DNA of 28,944 nucleotides. It comes from a virus. Lineage: Duplodnaviria > Heunggongvirae > Uroviricota > Caudoviricetes. This document shows, piece by piece, positions 6,195 through 27,600 of the stretch. The notes below the pieces were generated by a model, which saw only the letters and a list, made by a program, of their open reading frames with translations, had not been told where the DNA came from and searched no databases. The translations under genes were made by a program, and so were the position numbers. The stretch lies in IMG/VR virus record IMGVR_UViG_2667527522_000007. One strand, given 5' to 3'. How positions within the stretch are numbered: position 1 is the first letter of the stretch; the number at the start of each line of letters is the position of its first letter.

Positions 6195-7385
6195 TTAATT
6201 GCTGTTAACCGAGGTGACCAGATTCGCCAGGTATTTATCGGTAATACGCTGGCGCAGGGTCAGGTTTTCGAGAGGAGGCACCGGTGTATAGTCGTAGTCG
6301 ATATACAGTTTTCCGGCCTTGAGGGTTTCCGCATCGTTGGATTCTTCGCTGAACCAGCATGAGCCATCCACGATATAGCCGTTTGTTTTCAGCTCACGGA
6401 ATTTGGCATTGATGCCGTCAACGATGTCGCGAATCAGCGTTGCGGTGATGGGCTTGTCCACCGCCCACATGTGCGCCTCAGCTATCGTGTCGGCCAGCAC
6501 CTGCGCGGTACGGGTGTAGTTTTCAAAGAGAAACAGTGGGTCATCAGAGCAGGTACGGTTACCCCAGAAGCGGAAACCGTCGCGGCGAATCAGCGTAGTG
6601 ACGCCTGACTCGTTAAGCAGGTCAGCATCGGTGCCGGACTCCTGCAAATCCCAGAATACAGATGCGCTGATGCCGGTAACACCGTTCACCCCGACGTTGG
6701 ACAGCGTTTTATGCCAGCCCTGCTCCTGGTCGATTTTAGCGCGCAGCCCCAGCGCACGAGCGGTGGCATACGCGGTGGCGGTGGTACTGGTGACCGTATC
6801 CCATGCGAGGAAATCCGGCCAGATGACCATCAGCTCACGCTGGCTGAAATTCTGGCGGTAGGCTTTCACCTCGGAAATGGTCTTACAGCCCCATGCGCTG
6901 ATATACCCGAAAGCGCGCAGCTTCTGACAGACGGATGCTAGTGCTACAGCCACCTCTTTGGTATCCAGTCCCGGCACACCAAGAATACGCGGTTTAACAC
7001 CGGTTACCGACTCTGCCGCCAGCAGGGCTTTCAGTCCGGTGTACTGACCGTTTTCGTCAGTGGTGCCGATGATATTGGAAACGGTCTGCGCAAGTTTCGT
7101 TTCTTCGTCGTCGCCGGTGCCGTCCTCCACGCGCACAACAACGGTGACCGGTTTTGACTGGTCGGCGATAGCCTGCAACGATGCCGCCAGCGTGCCTTTT
7201 TTACCGGCCTTTGCAATTGCGCTCTGCACATTGGTAATCAGCACCGGTTTATTGAGGGGGAAGGTTTCCGCATCCGCATCGCTGGCCGTGCAGACCATGC
7301 CAACAATGGCAGTGGATACGGTGGAAATGACACGGGTGCCGTCGTTAATCTCCAGCACCTGCACGCCGTGATGATAGTCACTCAT
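6195..7385 (-). CDS. FI: Contractile tail sheath protein FI
   Basis: 396 aa, first gene of the FI-FII-E-T-U-D operon. Confidence 0.9.
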   Translation of the reverse strand: MSDYHHGVQVLEINDGTRVISTVSTAIVGMVCTASDADAETFPLNKPVLITNVQSAIAKAGKKGTLAASLQAIADQSKPVTVVVRVEDGTGDDEETKLAQTVSNIIGTTDENGQYTGLKALLAAESVTGVKPRILGVPGLDTKEVAVALASVCQKLRAFGYISAWGCKTISEVKAYRQNFSQRELMVIWPDFLAWDTVTSTTATAYATARALGLRAKIDQEQGWHKTLSNVGVNGVTGISASVFWDLQESGTDADLLNESGVTTLIRRDGFRFWGNRTCSDDPLFLFENYTRTAQVLADTIAEAHMWAVDKPITATLIRDIVDGINAKFRELKTNGYIVDGSCWFSEESNDAETLKAGKLYIDYDYTPVPPLENLTLRQRITDKYLANLVTSVNSN

Positions 7386-7444: not shown

Positions 7445-7627
7445 CTATTTGTCCCGGTTGGCTAAGGGATGACACAATTTATTCTTTGTCGCTGATGAGG
7501 GGAATTTTTTATAGAGCGTGGACAGGCCAATATCAAAAATCAGCTCACATCCTGCGCACTCCAGCGCGTTACGCTGCAATTCCGTATTCTGGTCATTTGT
7601 TGACACGCGGACATAGCCAATAAGCAT
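7445..7627 (-). pseudogene. Serine DNA invertase (Gin/Pin/Hin family) remnant with a large in-frame internal deletion
   Basis: 60-aa ORF: MLIGYVRVSTNDQNTELQRNALECAGCELIF (invertase N-terminus with catalytic-serine motif) fused directly to DIGLSTLYKKFP (invertase C-terminal tail); about 130 central codons missing. Confidence 0.75.
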
Positions 7628-7654: not shown

Positions 7655-8029
7655 ATGATGCCAGTTAGCCGTAATCTCTGCATTTTCTTAAACGTTGGTT
7701 TGGGAGAAGCGGCAAAACGGAATGTGGGAACAGGGGAAAATCAGATACCTGATATGTCATCATATGCATCAGGTTCAGGCTGGCGAAAAATGCCAGATGG
7801 TTCAATTGAACAGTGGGGACGAATTAGTTTTCCTGGTGAACACGGGCCTGTATCCGCCAATGTTTCATTCCCGATTCCATTTACACAGACACCGGGCATT
7901 GTAATTGTGTGCGATGGTGGTTTCGGGGGCGGGAATATGTGGGGGGCGACCAACTGGAGCACTACCGGCTTCATAGCTCACTGCAATTATGGTCTTGAAG
8001 GTGGTGCGTTTTTCGCTAAGGGCTGGTAA
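7655..8029 (+). CDS. Alternative tail-fibre C-terminal segment (Sv'-like), silent in this orientation
   Basis: Plus-strand ORF entering at site A with ...[11 protein letters not shown]...; Gly-rich tip; stop overlaps the next ATG (TAATGATG). Confidence 0.6.
7683..7708. repeat. Invertase crossover site A (gix/hix-like 26-bp site)
   Basis: TTTTCTTAAACGTTGGTTTGGGAGAA; 14 bp (7695-7708) is the exact reverse complement of 9508-9521. Confidence 0.6.
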
Positions 8030-8472
8030 TGATGAAATATCTGTACGTAAACAACCTGGCATATCCTTACGAACTTCAGTCTCTTTATGTTGAAAAAGGT
8101 GAATGGCCTGAAGAAAAAGGTGTTGATATAGACGAAGTAATTTTCAGGGAATATTTCTATGACACACCACCAGAAGGAAAATACAGATGTGTTGGAGAAG
8201 ATGGACTGCCTGCATGGGCAGATATTCCTCCACCAACACGTGAAGAACAAATTGCATCAGCCGAAACTAAAAAGCAGCAATTGATTAATCAGGCCAACGA
8301 TTATATGAACAGTAGACAATGGGTTGGTAAAGCGGCTATTGGTCGTCTGAAAGGTGAGGAACTGGCGCAATATAATTTGTGGCTGGATTATCTGGACGCA
8401 CTGGAGCTGGTCGATACTTCCAGTGCACCAGATATTGAATGGCCTACTCCTCCGGCAGTTCAGGCCAGATGA
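8029..8472 (+). CDS. Alternative tail fibre assembly chaperone (Tfa')
   Basis: 147 aa; C-terminal motif LDYLDALELVDTSSAPDIEWPTPP parallels the C-terminus of the convergent Tfa. Confidence 0.75.
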   Translation: MMKYLYVNNLAYPYELQSLYVEKGEWPEEKGVDIDEVIFREYFYDTPPEGKYRCVGEDGLPAWADIPPPTREEQIASAETKKQQLINQANDYMNSRQWVGKAAIGRLKGEELAQYNLWLDYLDALELVDTSSAPDIEWPTPPAVQAR

Positions 8473-9055
8473 CATCCGGCGCGGTGCTGGTATCTGTTGC
8501 CGTCACCGCGTCAATGTAATCCAGCACCGTGTTAAGTCGGCTGGTTTCTGCCTGCGTCAGATTCCGTCCGGCCCGTAATTTCAGTTGAATCAGACTGATG
8601 GAAGCCATTGCAGTATCAATCAGCGACTGGCGTTGTGCTTCTGCTGCATCTACTGCGGCGCTATGCTGTGCATCGGTATCCGTCACCCATTTCTCACCAT
8701 CCCATTTATCGTATGGTGTTAACGGGGCGATAGTGGTTGTATTATCAGGGTAATCACCCGGAGCTGTGATTTCTTTTGATTCTCCTGTTTCGGTGCTAAA
8801 GACGATTTCACCGCGATGGTCTGGCACATATTCCCATGAGTTAAAATCTGCAGAACGGCAGATTGCATAACCAGCCTTATGTGTAACTGGTGCATCTAAA
8901 CAAGAACATGCCGGGATACCGACGCCAACCGTAAGATATTCAGTTGATGTGGAAATATATTCCCGCGTTTCTCCGTTGTAGTTGTAAACGGTAATGAAGC
9001 CAGCCTCTGTGGCAAATCCGTTTTCATCCAAAGTGATTTTTTTTGTGGTCATCAT
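8444..9055 (-). CDS. G: Tail fibre assembly chaperone (G/Tfa family), expressed orientation
   Basis: 203 aa immediately downstream of H, start overlaps H stop; C-terminal motif VLDYIDAVTATDTSTAPDVIWPELP. Confidence 0.8.
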   Translation of the reverse strand: MMTTKKITLDENGFATEAGFITVYNYNGETREYISTSTEYLTVGVGIPACSCLDAPVTHKAGYAICRSADFNSWEYVPDHRGEIVFSTETGESKEITAPGDYPDNTTTIAPLTPYDKWDGEKWVTDTDAQHSAAVDAAEAQRQSLIDTAMASISLIQLKLRAGRNLTQAETSRLNTVLDYIDAVTATDTSTAPDVIWPELPEE

Positions 9056-10347
9056 GCTGCCCTTACAATGTAGTTAAATGCAATGTTACGTGGCCTTGTT
9101 TCTGCTGATGTTCTTGCACTCCTGGATAAATCAAGTGTCACACCATAGTAACTAAATGCATTACCAGTTGATGGAGCGGCATATTTAACCCCAGAACTAG
9201 AACCAACATTAAAAACTCCAGATGCTGAGGAAGCTGACCCCATAGTGTTATCAATCAGAGAACCCGTAACATTTTGCATAGCGTCAAGTTGTTCGCTTAA
9301 TAAAGCGCGTCCACTATCAACATCACGCCCGTCATCCCAGCCACGAATAAATTCACCTCGTAAATCAGGCAATTTATTTGTCGGATAAGCCTTTGCCAGT
9401 TCCGGGTATTCTTCAGCAGAAAAAAACGCACCGTTGCATTTCAGCCAGCCTGTTGGCGGAGTGGTGGAAGGCCACGGAACAGGCACGCCAACGGGTAATG
9501 CCGAACCTTCTCCCAAACCAAGGTATGCGAGAAGACCAGCTACATCCTTTCCACTCAAATGAGTCAGCGTCTCATCCAGTGGCTGCTTACCTGACAGCGC
9601 ATTGTTAATGGTGGTACTGAATTTCGGGTCATTGTTAATGGCTGCGGCAATTTCTTTCAGTGTGTCCAGCGTGGCTGGCGCACCGTTAATCAGAGCGGTA
9701 ATAGCGGCCTGAACAAACGCAGTGGTCGCAATCCGCGTGGTGTTATTTCCTGCGGCAGGCGTCGGCGCTTTTGGTTCTCCGGTAAATGTCGGATTATGTT
9801 TCTGCGCATACTGGGTATGAGGATCCTGTGCGGCAATGTGGTTTCTCATCTGGTCATCCACATACAGCCTTAATTCCAGGACTTCATCATCCACGTATTT
9901 ACGGGTCGCCAGTACCACCGACGGGTCGATTTTCAGCGTGATAGCTTCGGTATTCGTGACAACCAGAATCATGCGGATAGTCTGGGTACGACCACTGCCT
10001 TCCTGCAACTGCGGTTTGTACGTTTCCGGGCAGTTCGCCACCGCAATGAGTACGCCTTCATCATCATAAAGCCCAATCTCACGGATCCAGAATCCGCCCT
10101 CGTTCTCAGGGATGATTTGCTCCGCAATAATCTGGCTCTGGTTGTTCGGGTCAACACTCAGAAGATTCAGCGGCGCGATGCGTTTCTGGTTAATCAGTTT
10201 TGTCTGTGCCGGGTCTGGTGTCGGCAAGACACCATTCGCATCACCAACGGCCATTTGCGTCAGATTCAGCTTACTGCCGAGCATCGTCGCGTTAGCCAGC
10301 CGTGCTGCGCCCTGATTAGTCAGAATGGCGTAGTATTTCACTGTCAT
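9052..10347 (-). CDS. H: Tail fibre protein H (constant N-terminal part plus variable C-terminal part inside the invertible segment)
   Basis: 431 aa; Mu S / P2 H-like N-terminus; crossover site within codons LAYLGLGEGS; C-terminal region resembles a phage tail-collar domain. Confidence 0.85.
   Translation of the reverse strand: MTVKYYAILTNQGAARLANATMLGSKLNLTQMAVGDANGVLPTPDPAQTKLINQKRIAPLNLLSVDPNNQSQIIAEQIIPENEGGFWIREIGLYDDEGVLIAVANCPETYKPQLQEGSGRTQTIRMILVVTNTEAITLKIDPSVVLATRKYVDDEVLELRLYVDDQMRNHIAAQDPHTQYAQKHNPTFTGEPKAPTPAAGNNTTRIATTAFVQAAITALINGAPATLDTLKEIAAAINNDPKFSTTINNALSGKQPLDETLTHLSGKDVAGLLAYLGLGEGSALPVGVPVPWPSTTPPTGWLKCNGAFFSAEEYPELAKAYPTNKLPDLRGEFIRGWDDGRDVDSGRALLSEQLDAMQNVTGSLIDNTMGSASSASGVFNVGSSSGVKYAAPSTGNAFSYYGVTLDLSRSARTSAETRPRNIAFNYIVRAA
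9508..9533. repeat. Invertase crossover site B (gix/hix-like), inside H
   Basis: TTCTCCCAAACCAAGGTATGCGAGAA; imperfect palindrome with AAACC-AA-GG core like gix/hix. Confidence 0.6.
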
Positions 10348-22087: not shown

Positions 22088-22092
22088 ACATC

Positions 22093-22114
22093 GCCGCCTG
22101 CGGGCGGCTTTTTT
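22093..22114 (+). terminator. Rho-independent terminator after Q
   Basis: gccgcc-tgcg-ggcggc followed by tttttt. Confidence 0.6.
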
Positions 22115-22256
22115 ACACCCCGCCATCACGCCCTCACACGCTCACCACCGCACAAAACAGCCCGCAGACACACCAACGCCCCGGCGAACAATCTAAACGC
22201 CATCACGACGCGCTCAGACGCTGAAAAAATAAAATCAGCACCACCGCCAGCGCGCA

Positions 22257-22275
22257 GTGCTTTCCCCGCCTCGCC
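22257..22275. other. cos cohesive-end site (19 nt)
   Basis: gtgctttccccgcctcgcc is the reverse complement of GGCGAGGCGGGGAAAGCAC, the P2 cohesive end as I remember it; lies just after Q as in P2. Confidence 0.6.
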
Positions 22276-22560
22276 CGCCCGCTTCACGGGGCGGTTTTAA
22301 TGCAGTTGCATAGATACTATGGATCCGCACCAGTCCTGACCGCACGCCGCCTGAACGGACATCCCCAACGCATGCAAAAACATTCACTTGTTGCATGCAT
22401 AGCTTTTTAAGTACGCCATACCGCAACTGTACATTTTTAAGCAATTGGCAACTTTAAAAAATTTACATTGCTTTCAAGACCTTATCATCCGTAGTCTCTG
22501 TTTTTTACTTTGAGCTACATCAATAAAATCTCAAACATGTTTAATGCAAAGCCCTTGTTA

Positions 22561-22615
22561 CACAACATAGAATGTATGCCTAGAAACAACGACATACTAT
22601 ATGTTGTGTTTTTCC
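22561..22615 (+). other. Long imperfect hairpin with U-tract (candidate sRNA 3' end or attenuator) in the accessory cassette
   Basis: cacaacata...tatgttgtg 9-bp outer stem with an inner gtatg/catac stem, followed by ttttt; possible promoter TTTACA-15-TATCAT about 80 bp upstream (22462-22488). Confidence 0.3.
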
Positions 22616-22675
22616 GGCTCTCTGTTCGGTGATATGCCAAATCACTTTGCGTTTAAACAGAGCATTATTTCAGGG

Positions 22676-22690
22676 CAAGACTTCGCTCAA
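22676..22690 (+). repeat. 15-bp direct repeat, copy 1 (caagacttcgctcaa)
   Basis: Exact 15-mer repeated at 22940-22954. Confidence 0.5.
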
Positions 22691-22753
22691 AAGTCATTCC
22701 ACCTAAGAAGCGCATATACCGGTGGAAGTTGCCCTCTACTTACAGGAGGCAAT

Positions 22754-22867
22754 ATGAAGAAATGCTATTACTGCATTCTCGTTCTGGCCCTCTTTGGCTA
22801 TCCAAACGGTAGTCCGAGTGGTTTGTCAGTAAACGTCAGTAATATCAATGTCAGCATTATGCTTTAA
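22754..22867 (+). CDS. Small 37-aa hydrophobic peptide, function unknown (candidate moron or small toxin-like peptide)
   Basis: AGGAGG 4 nt upstream of ATG; MKKCYYCILVLALFGYPNGSPSGLSVNVSNINVSIML; terminator immediately downstream; the 88-aa track ORF 22601..22867 has no RBS. Confidence 0.3.
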   Translation: MKKCYYCILVLALFGYPNGSPSGLSVNVSNINVSIML

Positions 22868-22880
22868 TATGCTTCAAACA

Positions 22881-22910
22881 AAAAAACCACCTGCCAGGGT
22901 GGTTTTTTTG
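22881..22910. terminator. Bidirectional rho-independent terminator (A-tract, hairpin, T-tract)
   Basis: aaaaaaccacc-tgccag-ggtggttttttt; could terminate both the small-ORF transcript and the convergent early operon ending with A. Confidence 0.6.
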
Positions 22911-22939
22911 CGCCCATCATCAATACGATGAAAGACTGA

Positions 22940-22954
22940 CAAGACTTCGCTCAA
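22940..22954 (+). repeat. 15-bp direct repeat, copy 2 (caagacttcgctcaa)
   Basis: Exact copy of 22676-22690; the pair brackets the small ORF and terminator. Confidence 0.5.
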
Positions 22955-23169
22955 GACGAATTATGCGTCGACATAAGGTTACCCGCAATGATTTTATTAG
23001 ACTAAATGGATGGCCTTTTATGACCCGGATCAAACGGCTGTCCTTACCGACATGCTAGTCACTCAATAGCATTTAGCCTTCTAATTCAGCATGCTATTGA
23101 CCTTCTGCTGCCCCATAACTGCTCCGCATAAGCCATTCAATGCCATATCAAATCACGTTGTGTTTTTAC

Positions 23170-27479: not shown

Positions 27480-27600
27480 AGGATCCAGCCCTTTCTAAAC
27501 CACTCAAAACCGTTTAGACGCTGGTTTATTCTCAAATCAATGGAACCTATATAGGTTCCAGTTTTGAGGGAATTTAGTCCCTATATAGGCACCATGTCAA
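27480..27600. promoter_or_regulatory. Immunity switch region (divergent Pe/Pc promoters and repressor operators)
   Basis: Intergenic between divergent cox and C; 18-bp perfect palindrome GGAACCTATATAGGTTCC (27542-27559) and a second CCTATATAGG copy (27580-27589) 34 bp away; additional inverted repeats cactcaaaac/gttttgag. Confidence 0.5.

Follow-up and report, generated by a model that had tools for sequence, protein, structure and literature searches.

The window (the whole stretch of 28,944 nucleotides analysed here) carries the P2 gene order, with int, C, cox, A and Q/P, the late genes V-W-J-I-H-G and FI-FII-E-T-U-D, and ogr. The hallmark proteins of P2-like phages (Peduovirus) are found among its ORFs through the Pfam families Tail_P2_I, Phage_GPA, Phage_GPD, Ogr_Delta and Phage_Cox and those of the integrase and the sheath. 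The best phage matches are Peduovirus records, the pF/FI region is nearly identical to that of P2, and the related contigs whose identity is given belong to E. coli (NCTC10973, AR_0137). Judged from its sequence, the host element is an otherwise complete P2-like E. coli prophage, its P2-like character being in agreement with the original prediction. Comparison with P2 also supported the position proposed for the cassette, which occupies the G-FI interval where P2 itself has fun(Z). The features of this interval are the following:

7445-7627, minus strand: remnant of a Din-family invertase gene, 60 aa, matching PF00239 on aa 3-35 only
7449-7477, minus strand: putative equivalent of the activator-binding site of the P2 pF late promoter, from alignment with the annotated P2 pF region
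7533-7543, minus strand: deletion junction, the single remaining copy of an 11-bp repeat, CTGATTTTTGA
7538-7609, minus strand: putative equivalent of the recombinational enhancer, invertase gene nt 19-90, from the P1 cin enhancer annotation
7655-8029, plus strand: ORF of the silent alternative tip, gp53-like_C (PF21882, 1.3e-07; PHROG tail fibre)
7683-7708: invertase-proximal crossover site with outer half TTTTCTTAAACG, centre TT (7695-7696) and inner half GGTTTGGGAGAA, in the Din-type 12+2+12 layout
7697-9519: invertible segment between the central dinucleotides, about 1.82 kb, with reversed copies in relatives L008, L043 and L048
8029-8472, plus strand: Tfa', chaperone for the silent gp53-like tip (PF02413, 3.2e-33)
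8444-9055, minus strand: Tfa, chaperone for the Collar-domain tip, in the position of gene G (PF02413, 1.4e-32)
9052-10347, minus strand: tail-fibre gene H in its current (ON) form, 431 aa (PF12571, 2.5e-62; PF07484, 2.7e-14)
9508-9533: crossover site within H with inner half TTCTCCCAAACC, centre AA (9520-9521) and outer half GGTATGCGAGAA, on codons LGLGE (aa 276-280)

The H protein, assigned by PHROG to tail protein, consists of a constant part lying outside the segment (aa 1-280, nt 9508-10347, PF12571) and of a tip with a Collar domain (nt 9052-9507, PF07484) which matches solved short and long tail-fibre proteins of the PDB. The silent tip is present as an ORF of 124 aa with an 18-aa leader; its codons after the site, from AAKRN... 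to W (nt 7709-8029), encode 106 aa and weakly match PDB entries for the fibre tips of R-type pyocins. The site inside H falls on codons L276-G-L-G-E280 (nt 9508-9522) and the plus-strand site on GLGE of ORF 7655-8029, as had been noticed at the outset. Reverse-complementing the segment in silico, the check suggested with that observation, produced an uninterrupted 386-aa ORF, H', composed of the 280 constant and 106 new residues, so that H and H' have residues 1-280 in common and each tip is in frame with them. The in-frame exchange of tips proposed in the original prediction was thus obtained, while the 155 and 110 residues that it gives for the tips count the shared GLGE as well. The predicted product also exists in nature: the 386-aa H' is annotated in E. 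coli EA2, in a prophage 94-98% identical to this one with the segment reversed at both sites. H and the "gp53-like domain protein" are better annotated as alternative ends of one gene. Directly downstream of each tip lies its own chaperone, Tfa or Tfa', both belonging to PF02413 (Caudo_TAP) and converging with a 29-nt overlap, which agrees with the tip-specific convergent chaperones expected. The G+C content of the segment is 46.6% vs 53.2% for the whole window, and scans for promoters and terminators around the segment remained at background level.

A repeat search of the window returned the inverted arms 7683-7709 and 9507-9533 (27 nt, 81% complementary), whose common exact core measures 15 bp (7695-7709 and 9507-9521); the core first reported is real, with a length of 15 rather than 14 bp. 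Taken alone, a 15-bp exact repeat in 28.9 kb was rejected as significant, since 30 mononucleotide shuffles had longest exact inverted repeats of 13 to 21 bp, and the 14-mer with up to three mismatches showed no enrichment in the window. The full 26-bp sites are significant. The Din pattern TTCTCNNAAACCNNGGTWTNNGAKAA, which was composed by us from an alignment of the two sites found here with cix, gix and pix, gave with up to three mismatches two matches in the window, the two 26-bp sites, and none in 100 shuffles. P1 cixR fits the 12+2+12 layout and this consensus exactly, and site 9508-9533 matches it without mismatch. Site 7683-7708 has a single mismatch to the stfE-side site of e14 and none to its counterpart in EA2, whose invertase is intact. 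Each site has two 12-bp half-sites around a 2-bp core, and from TT at 7695-7696 and AA at 9520-9521 it follows that the two are inverted and not direct. The reading of these sequences as an inverted pair of gix/hix-like sites is confirmed by their centres and by the pattern, which place them in the gix/cix/pix type, and the contrary case of direct repeats falls away. Neither the 14-mer nor the Din-pattern scan revealed in the window a third crossover site of the kind present in a shufflon.

What the original prediction overlooked is the internal deletion of the adjacent invertase gene, which encodes 60 aa instead of 197 and matches PF00239 only in part. Aligned with the intact genes of relatives L002 and L008, the remnant corresponds to residues 1-31 and 169-197 of the 197-aa protein, residues 32-168 having been removed by an in-frame deletion of 411 bp. 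The intact gene contains 11-bp direct repeats at gene nt 85-95 and 496-506, and the EA2 gene minus the sequence between the repeat copies is the remnant apart from 3 SNPs. In NCTC10973 and AR_0137, RefSeq calls the same remnant a recombinase pseudogene, and the 60-aa product is listed in 989 blocks of a public collection. Beside the segment there is only this remnant and no intact serine invertase with catalytic domain and C-terminal HTH, and no further resolvase-family ORF was found among the window ORFs scanned with Pfam. Because residues 32-168 of its own invertase are lost, the cassette would be non-autonomous and turnable only by a related enzyme encoded elsewhere; the phage is predicted to be unable to flip its own segment.

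Inversion of the Din type requires Fis and a negatively supercoiled DNA substrate. In the P1 record, the cin enhancer is annotated at cin nt 19-90, and the equivalent stretch is fully kept in the remnant, with identities of 57/72 to cin, 55/72 to gin and 60/72 to pinE. From this position and from the 76-83% identity, we infer that the retained 7538-7609 could still be a working enhancer binding Fis. At the other end of the gene, the putative pF activator-binding site, proposed by homology with P2, is located inside the last codons of the remnant and upstream of FI (6195-7385).

Evidence on the behavior of the segment comes from relatives in which it has the opposite orientation, reached through the Tfa and Tfa' proteins, which do not depend on orientation. 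EA2 has flanks collinear with those of the window around a reversed segment, whose breakpoints map to 7692-7709 and 9507-9524. Relative L043 has a left flank of 4,046 nt, including the remnant, that is 100.000% identical to the window, and a reversed segment identical at 99.945%; the window inverted in silico aligns with it in a single HSP of 8,837 nt. Its right flank, at 34 mismatches over 3.8 kb, is more diverged than the left, which points to some recombination also in that lineage. In relative L048, which carries the same remnant, both flanks are 100.000% identical (4,658 and 6,392 nt) and the segment is flipped at the H side, the invertase-side junction being a scaffold gap (NN). Relatives L019 and L020 both contain the remnant, differ by 5 SNPs in 12.2 kb and have opposite orientations; they possess two slightly different inner half-sites whose outer partners are swapped exactly at the central AA, the signature of a site-specific and not of a homologous exchange. 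A similar opposite-orientation pair is formed by L017 and L018. The breakpoints lie inside the 15-18-bp repeat in every pair compared. The same remnant and 100%-identical flanks in flipped genomes argue that the cassette still inverts, presumably driven in the deleted background by a Din invertase acting in trans. Separate repeat-mediated deletions with the same junction might conceivably have occurred in each orientation instead of a single one.

We consider it likely that the locus is a Din-family invertible host-range cassette in the G-FI (Z/fun) hotspot, non-autonomous and flipped by a trans-supplied Din invertase. In this mechanism, late transcription from the V operon would pass through the 280 constant codons of H and into the segment, giving in the present orientation H with the Collar tip and then Tfa. 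If a serine invertase exchanged strands at the central dinucleotide of each 26-bp site, the 1.8-kb segment would be turned and the gp53-like tip, followed by Tfa', placed behind the same constant part, which would change the receptor-binding end of the tail fibre and possibly its specificity. Codons 32-168 of the phage's own invertase were lost through the 411-bp deletion between the 11-bp direct repeats, an event that spared both sites, the 5' enhancer-equivalent stretch and the 3' end overlapping the pF promoter region. Candidates for the trans-acting enzyme are PinE of e14, PinQ and PinR, or else an invertase from a further P2-like or Mu-like prophage.

The cassette could instead be a frozen relic which lost its invertase with the Collar tip locked ON, the silent tip and Tfa' being decaying cargo. 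The non-functional invertase fits such a history, and so does the rarity of the deleted allele in complete E. coli genomes (3 single-piece matches among the 80 listed). All 7 of the 7 contigs shown with the exact 431-aa H and the remnant are in the window's orientation, a result for which the H look-up itself selects. Decaying cargo, however, accords poorly with a silent tip ORF and a Tfa' that are intact, the exact Tfa' protein occurring in 975 blocks of the collection, beside invertases in P2-like, Mu-like and other prophages, or with two sites that both agree base for base with those of a prophage whose invertase looks active. The flipped copies in L043 and L048, with the same remnant and 100%-identical flanks, also speak against it, as does the fact that other Din invertases are common in E. 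coli (PMC12529663), and we regard a permanently locked cassette as unlikely.

Differences in orientation could also arise through homologous recombination or cassette replacement between prophages. The cassette is indeed highly mosaic, Tfa and Tfa' recurring across P2-like, Mu-like and other prophages; the DNA of Tfa and the Collar tip, the ON module, is about 95% identical to stf-tfa of HK97/HK106; and the uneven flanks of L043 could be read in the same direction. Such exchange does not account for breakpoints confined to the short repeat in all pairs or for the half-site swap of L019/L020 at the central dinucleotide, and importing the flipped segment of L043 from an invertase-positive donor would need a crossover within the stretch of about 160 bp that separates the site from the deletion junction, all of which makes this explanation very improbable. 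Hardly any weight can be given to a chance inverted repeat, with a fixed H tip and plus-strand ORFs left over from an unrelated tail-fibre module. Its one argument is that the 15-bp exact repeat lies within the shuffled range, and it is contradicted by 26-bp sites fitting a consensus absent from 100 shuffles, by inner half-sites identical to e14 pix, by the adjoining invertase remnant and the in-frame fusion, and by the natural inversions at exactly these sites in EA2, L043 and L019/L020.

Among known systems, the proposed trans-flipped Din cassette has its closest relative by sequence in the e14 P segment with PinE of E. coli K-12 (stfP/ycfK, tfaP, tfaE, stfE, pinE). Both have a constant N-terminus, two convergent modules of tip plus chaperone and an invertase gene directed away from the segment. 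Their inner half-sites agree fully, central AA included (TTCTCCCAAACC AA), and a single base differs in the outer half-site next to the invertase. At the protein level, Tfa shares 87% identity with TfaE and the Collar tip 57% with StfE, and the identity of Tfa' to TfaP, over its C-terminal part, is 62%. The intact form of the invertase, as present in EA2, reaches 87% identity with PinE, against 81% with Gin and 79% with Cin. The differences are that e14 is a defective lambdoid element, whereas the cassette described here belongs to a complete P2-like prophage with a P2-type constant part of H, that no similarity was detected between the gp53-like tip and the C-terminus of StfP, and that the invertase is deleted here. 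The spacing between the repeats is 1,797 nt here and in e14, a match which we considered and do not regard as meaningful because the repeats measure 15 vs 16 bp and the gene lengths differ.

The locus had been described as Mu G-like, which holds for the mechanism and not for the sequence. With Mu G/Gin and P1 C/Cin it shares the family of its 26-bp sites, the place of the enhancer (putative here) within the 5' end of the gene for the invertase, and the organization into a constant Sc, alternative Sv/Sv' tips and U/U' chaperones. The comparison of both tips with the Mu, P1 and e14 proteins, recommended from the start, detected StfE for the Collar tip, but no BLASTP match to Mu or P1 S/S' at E<=1e-3. 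The chaperones are about 30% identical to those of Mu and P1 over some 70 residues; at 1.8 kb, the segment is shorter than those of Mu (3 kb) and P1 (4.2 kb); its sites have the central AA of cix, gix having GA; and the phage family and the genome position differ.

Cassettes in the same G-FI position are present in other phages of the P2-like family, and such invertible loci with invertases are already described. Inversion was shown experimentally for the locus of EPEC E2348/69 (PMC4272514) and inferred for Salmonella Fels-2 with fin (PMC7953296), and a survey of P2 hotspots often found an invertase and inversion of adjacent genes at Z/fun, likewise the home of such cassettes (10.1101/2024.10.15.618418). 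To these and EA2 we add phage P2 from O157:H43 T22 and Salmonella phage MET_P1_103_31. The P2-like invertible loci have the same genes, namely H with a silent tip, a pair of Tfa genes and an invertase; the others have an intact invertase of 165-197 aa vs the 60-aa remnant found here, and one EPEC locus is a three-site shufflon, unlike this one with two sites only. Matches to the locus occur in about one third of 5,426 complete E. coli genomes, and the arrangement, very common in E. coli and already in the literature, is not unusual.

The switch is thus of an ordinary, already described type with one modest twist, its own gutted invertase gene, and the main gain is a tidier annotation, with the locus read as a standard invertible tail-fibre cassette of the Pin type in the Z/fun hotspot of P2. 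A useful addition is the widespread invertase-less allele that still occurs in both orientations with identical flanks, evidence from natural populations for cross-talk between prophage invertases. Such cross-talk is consistent with experiments in which PinQ of Qin inverts the e14 P segment, a substrate of PinQ and PinE with the same repeat, TTGGTTTGGGAGAAGG (PMC12529663). According to earlier work as cited in that article, the H segment of Salmonella is inverted by Fin of Fels-2, and PinE acts on both H and the G segment of Mu. In phage typing, in assembly and in the prediction of host range, tail-fibre orientation would then be a property of the host's whole invertase complement and not of the prophage alone.

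A more speculative idea, to which we attach little confidence, is that invertase-less cassettes are maintained non-autonomous switches rather than products of decay. In this view, the deletion keeps precisely the cis functions placed in the invertase gene, the 5' enhancer and the 3' pF activator site. If it were true, the Din invertases of the host's other prophages would govern tail-fibre switching or a StfE2-like adsorption block benefiting the host, and the host-range bet-hedging of the phage would be coupled to the resident prophage community. Activity in trans could also recombine sites of different prophages, leading to shared cassettes and large chromosomal inversions; in relative L014, a junction between two prophages suggests such cross-prophage site recombination.

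Reverse-complementing in silico the DNA between the cores of two crossover sites gave an unbroken 386-aa product, H', whose residues 1-280 are common with the 431-aa tail-fibre protein H, and the continuous reading frame foreseen by the original prediction was thereby obtained. The H-side site falls on codons L276-E280 and the plus-strand site on the GLGE of ORF 7655-8029. The view that each tip has its own chaperone was also borne out, as both candidate ORFs belong to the Caudo_TAP family and each lies directly behind its own tip. The late V-operon transcript would then express the tip and chaperone facing the constant part of H, and the two tips would bind different receptors.

Features of the invertible segment (domains by Pfam; half-sites by alignment with the cix, gix and e14 sites)
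9052-10347, minus: H, P2-type N-terminal fibre domain (PF12571) and Collar-domain tip (PF07484)
8444-9055, minus: Tfa, Caudo_TAP chaperone, directly after its own tip
8029-8472, plus: Tfa', Caudo_TAP chaperone, directly after its own tip
7655-8029, plus: silent ORF, gp53-like_C tip (PF21882)
9508-9533, inside H: H-side site, half-sites TTCTCCCAAACC-AA-GGTATGCGAGAA
7683-7708: invertase-side site, reverse complement, half-sites TTCTCCCAAACC-AA-CGTTTAAGAAAA

In a repeat search of the 5-12 kb region, no inverted repeat was longer than 7683-7709 / 9507-9533 (27 nt, 81% complementarity), whose arms have an exact core of 15 bp in common. This core is unremarkable by itself: in 30 shuffled versions of the window the longest exact inverted repeats measured 13-21 bp, and the 14-mer was not enriched in the window when up to 3 mismatches were allowed. 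Aligned with P1 cixL/R, Mu gixL/R and the two e14 sites, both sites present the 12+2+12 layout of the Din family, and it is this form, not the repeat length, that makes them real. A degenerate Din consensus with up to 3 mismatches matched these two places only and had no match in 100 shuffles; the pattern fits P1 cixR exactly, but was composed after viewing the window's sites beside the others and is not fully independent. The plus-strand centres are TT at one site and AA at the other; the 26-bp sites are therefore inverted and not direct, as had been proposed.

The invertase gene beside the segment is a remnant. In its 60-aa ORF (7445-7627, minus), Pfam matched the resolvase catalytic domain at residues 3-35 only, while intact genes of 197 aa occupy the equivalent place in Salmonella phage MET_P1_103_31 and in the prophage of E. 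coli EA2. Compared with these, the window lacks exactly 411 bp bounded by two copies of CTGATTTTTGA (direct repeats at nt 85-95 and 496-506 of the intact gene), and removing this interval in silico from the EA2 gene yields the remnant, bar 3 SNPs. The product retains residues 1-31, with the Ser10 region among them, and 169-197. From the family's known architecture, we infer that it cannot be a recombinase, because most of the catalytic and most of the DNA-binding domain are gone. The intact protein shares 87% identity with PinE, 81% with Gin and 79% with Cin. The equivalent of the annotated P1 enhancer (cin nt 19-90) is kept in the remnant at 7538-7609, and this 5' stretch may still act as a Fis-dependent enhancer. 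At the other end, the equivalent of the P2 pF activator-binding site (7449-7477), just upstream of FI, overlaps the closing codons of the invertase gene, and a deletion in the invertase would spare tail-gene expression only if it were internal. The 411-bp deletion observed also leaves the enhancer-equivalent 5' end.

Natural inversion was found in relatives with either allele. The EA2 prophage, 94-98% identical to the window, has collinear flanks and 7692-9524 in reverse, with breakpoints inside the repeats; its RefSeq record annotates the 386-aa H' followed by Tfa'. Complete E. coli genomes also contain the flipped junction made in silico, unbroken and at 97.5-98.7% identity. Relatives bearing the remnant are more telling. 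In the contig L043, the remnant-bearing left flank matches the window at 100.000% identity for 4,046 nt and the segment is reversed (99.945%), giving a single 8,837-nt HSP against the inverted window. In L048 (IMGVR_UViG_2671180841_000012), each flank (4,658 nt and 6,392 nt) matches the window at 100.000% identity, and the junction on the H side is the flipped one. A scaffold gap (NN, 8209-8212) coincides exactly with the segment's border on the invertase side, and the five bases after it belong to the H-side outer half-site, which hints that both orientations were present in the sample; the assembly probably broke on a population of mixed orientation. The anatomy, the in-frame alternative, the dead invertase and the kept sites are established, as is the occurrence of both orientations in the deleted lineage.

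Two further contigs, L019 and L020, combine the remnant and the constant H seen here with another cassette. Over 12.2 kb, 5 SNPs separate the two, and their segments point in opposite directions (L017 and L018 form a similar pair). The inner half-sites of L019 and L020 differ slightly (TTCTCCAAATCC versus TTCTCCCAAACC) and the outer partners are exchanged exactly at the central AA, which is the behaviour of a serine invertase and one that homologous recombination would rarely produce. Most simply read, the segment went on flipping after the deletion through an invertase encoded elsewhere, which another prophage of the same cell might supply. Din invertases can replace one another. A recent paper reports inversion of the e14 P segment by PinQ, an enzyme of the Qin prophage (PMC12529663); the repeat of that segment, TTGGTTTGGGAGAAGG, is identical to the window's. 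The paper also cites Fin of Fels-2 as an enzyme for the Salmonella H segment, and PinE as one for both the H segment and Mu G. Flipping driven in trans fits both this interchangeability and the action of PinQ. In a separate contig (L014, 6815-8665; GCA_050880625.1, JBNZBO010000014.1), the cassette has 99% identity to that of the window as far as the invertase-side site, where it is joined in frame, not to the remnant, but to the constant H of a second, different P2-like prophage. The result is a 384-aa H'' whose outer half-site is GGTTTTGTAGAA, and the I, J, W and V genes of the second prophage come next, in convergent orientation; this is either inter-prophage site-specific recombination giving a large chromosomal inversion, or a misassembly.

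Queries with the invertase-side junction matched about 1,700-2,000 of 5,426 complete E. coli genomes, and each of the two silent-tip arrangements is common (190 and 801 records, counted at a coverage of at least 80%). Among the 80 matches listed, nearly all have the intact invertase gene and three the deleted allele (NCTC10973, 1332KP and LD27-1), which is also listed in 989 blocks of a larger collection.

The original prediction was correct and well described, for a system of a known kind in a known place, and our sole addition would be the invertase-deleted, trans-dependent state with the population evidence of continued flipping. The likeness of the cassette to Mu G and P1 C holds for the mechanism but not for the sequence, because by BLASTP the tips match none of the S/S' proteins of Mu and P1 at E<=1e-3. 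By sequence the e14 P segment is nearest, with inner half-sites identical to the window's, TfaE 87% identical to Tfa and StfE 57% identical to the Collar-domain tip. The ON module (tip and Tfa, 8392-9527) has about 95% DNA identity to the stf-tfa ends of the lambdoid phages HK97/HK106, and this similarity ends at the crossover site; the site coding for LGLGE thus also marks a module boundary common to phage families. The cassette is likewise a widely shared mobile module, since exact Tfa' and Tfa adjoin invertases, in both orientations, in two P2-like lineages and in Mu-like and other myovirus-type prophages. Inversion was demonstrated in a P2-like prophage of EPEC E2348/69 (PMC4272514) and described in Fels-2 (PMC7953296), and programmed inversions predicted across bacteria are enriched in genes annotated as tail fibre protein that neighbour 'phage tail protein I' and tail-fibre assembly proteins (PMC9881135).

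Outside the cassette, ORF order and Pfam show a complete P2-like prophage (int, C, cox, B, A, Q, P, capsid and lysis genes, R, S, V, W, J, I, H, G, FI, FII, E, T, U, D and ogr). The cassette was rightly placed at the Z/fun position, because the G-FI interval of P2 itself holds fun(Z); a hotspot survey often found tail-fibre swaps, a DNA invertase and adjacent-gene inversion at G-FI (10.1101/2024.10.15.618418). Beyond ogr, after an AT-rich stretch, a 213-aa ORF (1-642, minus) gave a hit to PD-T4-10_B, a PADLOC model (E 1.3e-34, profile positions 139-346 of 353), and none in Pfam, PHROG or NCBIfam. This ORF in P2's third hotspot is a candidate cargo gene against phages; its partner A gene, if any, lies beyond the window edge. 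Between it and ogr, a perfect 16-bp stem (AAACAGAAAGCCCCTC / GAGGGGCTTTCTGTTT, 4-nt loop, 743-778) looks like a bidirectional intrinsic terminator setting off the cargo gene. The interval of about 1.1 kb from portal gene Q to gene A (22088-23169), where P2 has its old/tin hotspot and cos, seems devoid of a recognisable defence gene, since no ORF exceeds 88 aa and a family search of the interval gave no match. Between cox and C, a perfect 20-bp palindrome (TGGAACCTATATAGGTTCCA, 27541-27560), whose core CCTATATAGG recurs 30 bp downstream (27581-27590), likely forms with this second copy the operators of the immunity repressor.
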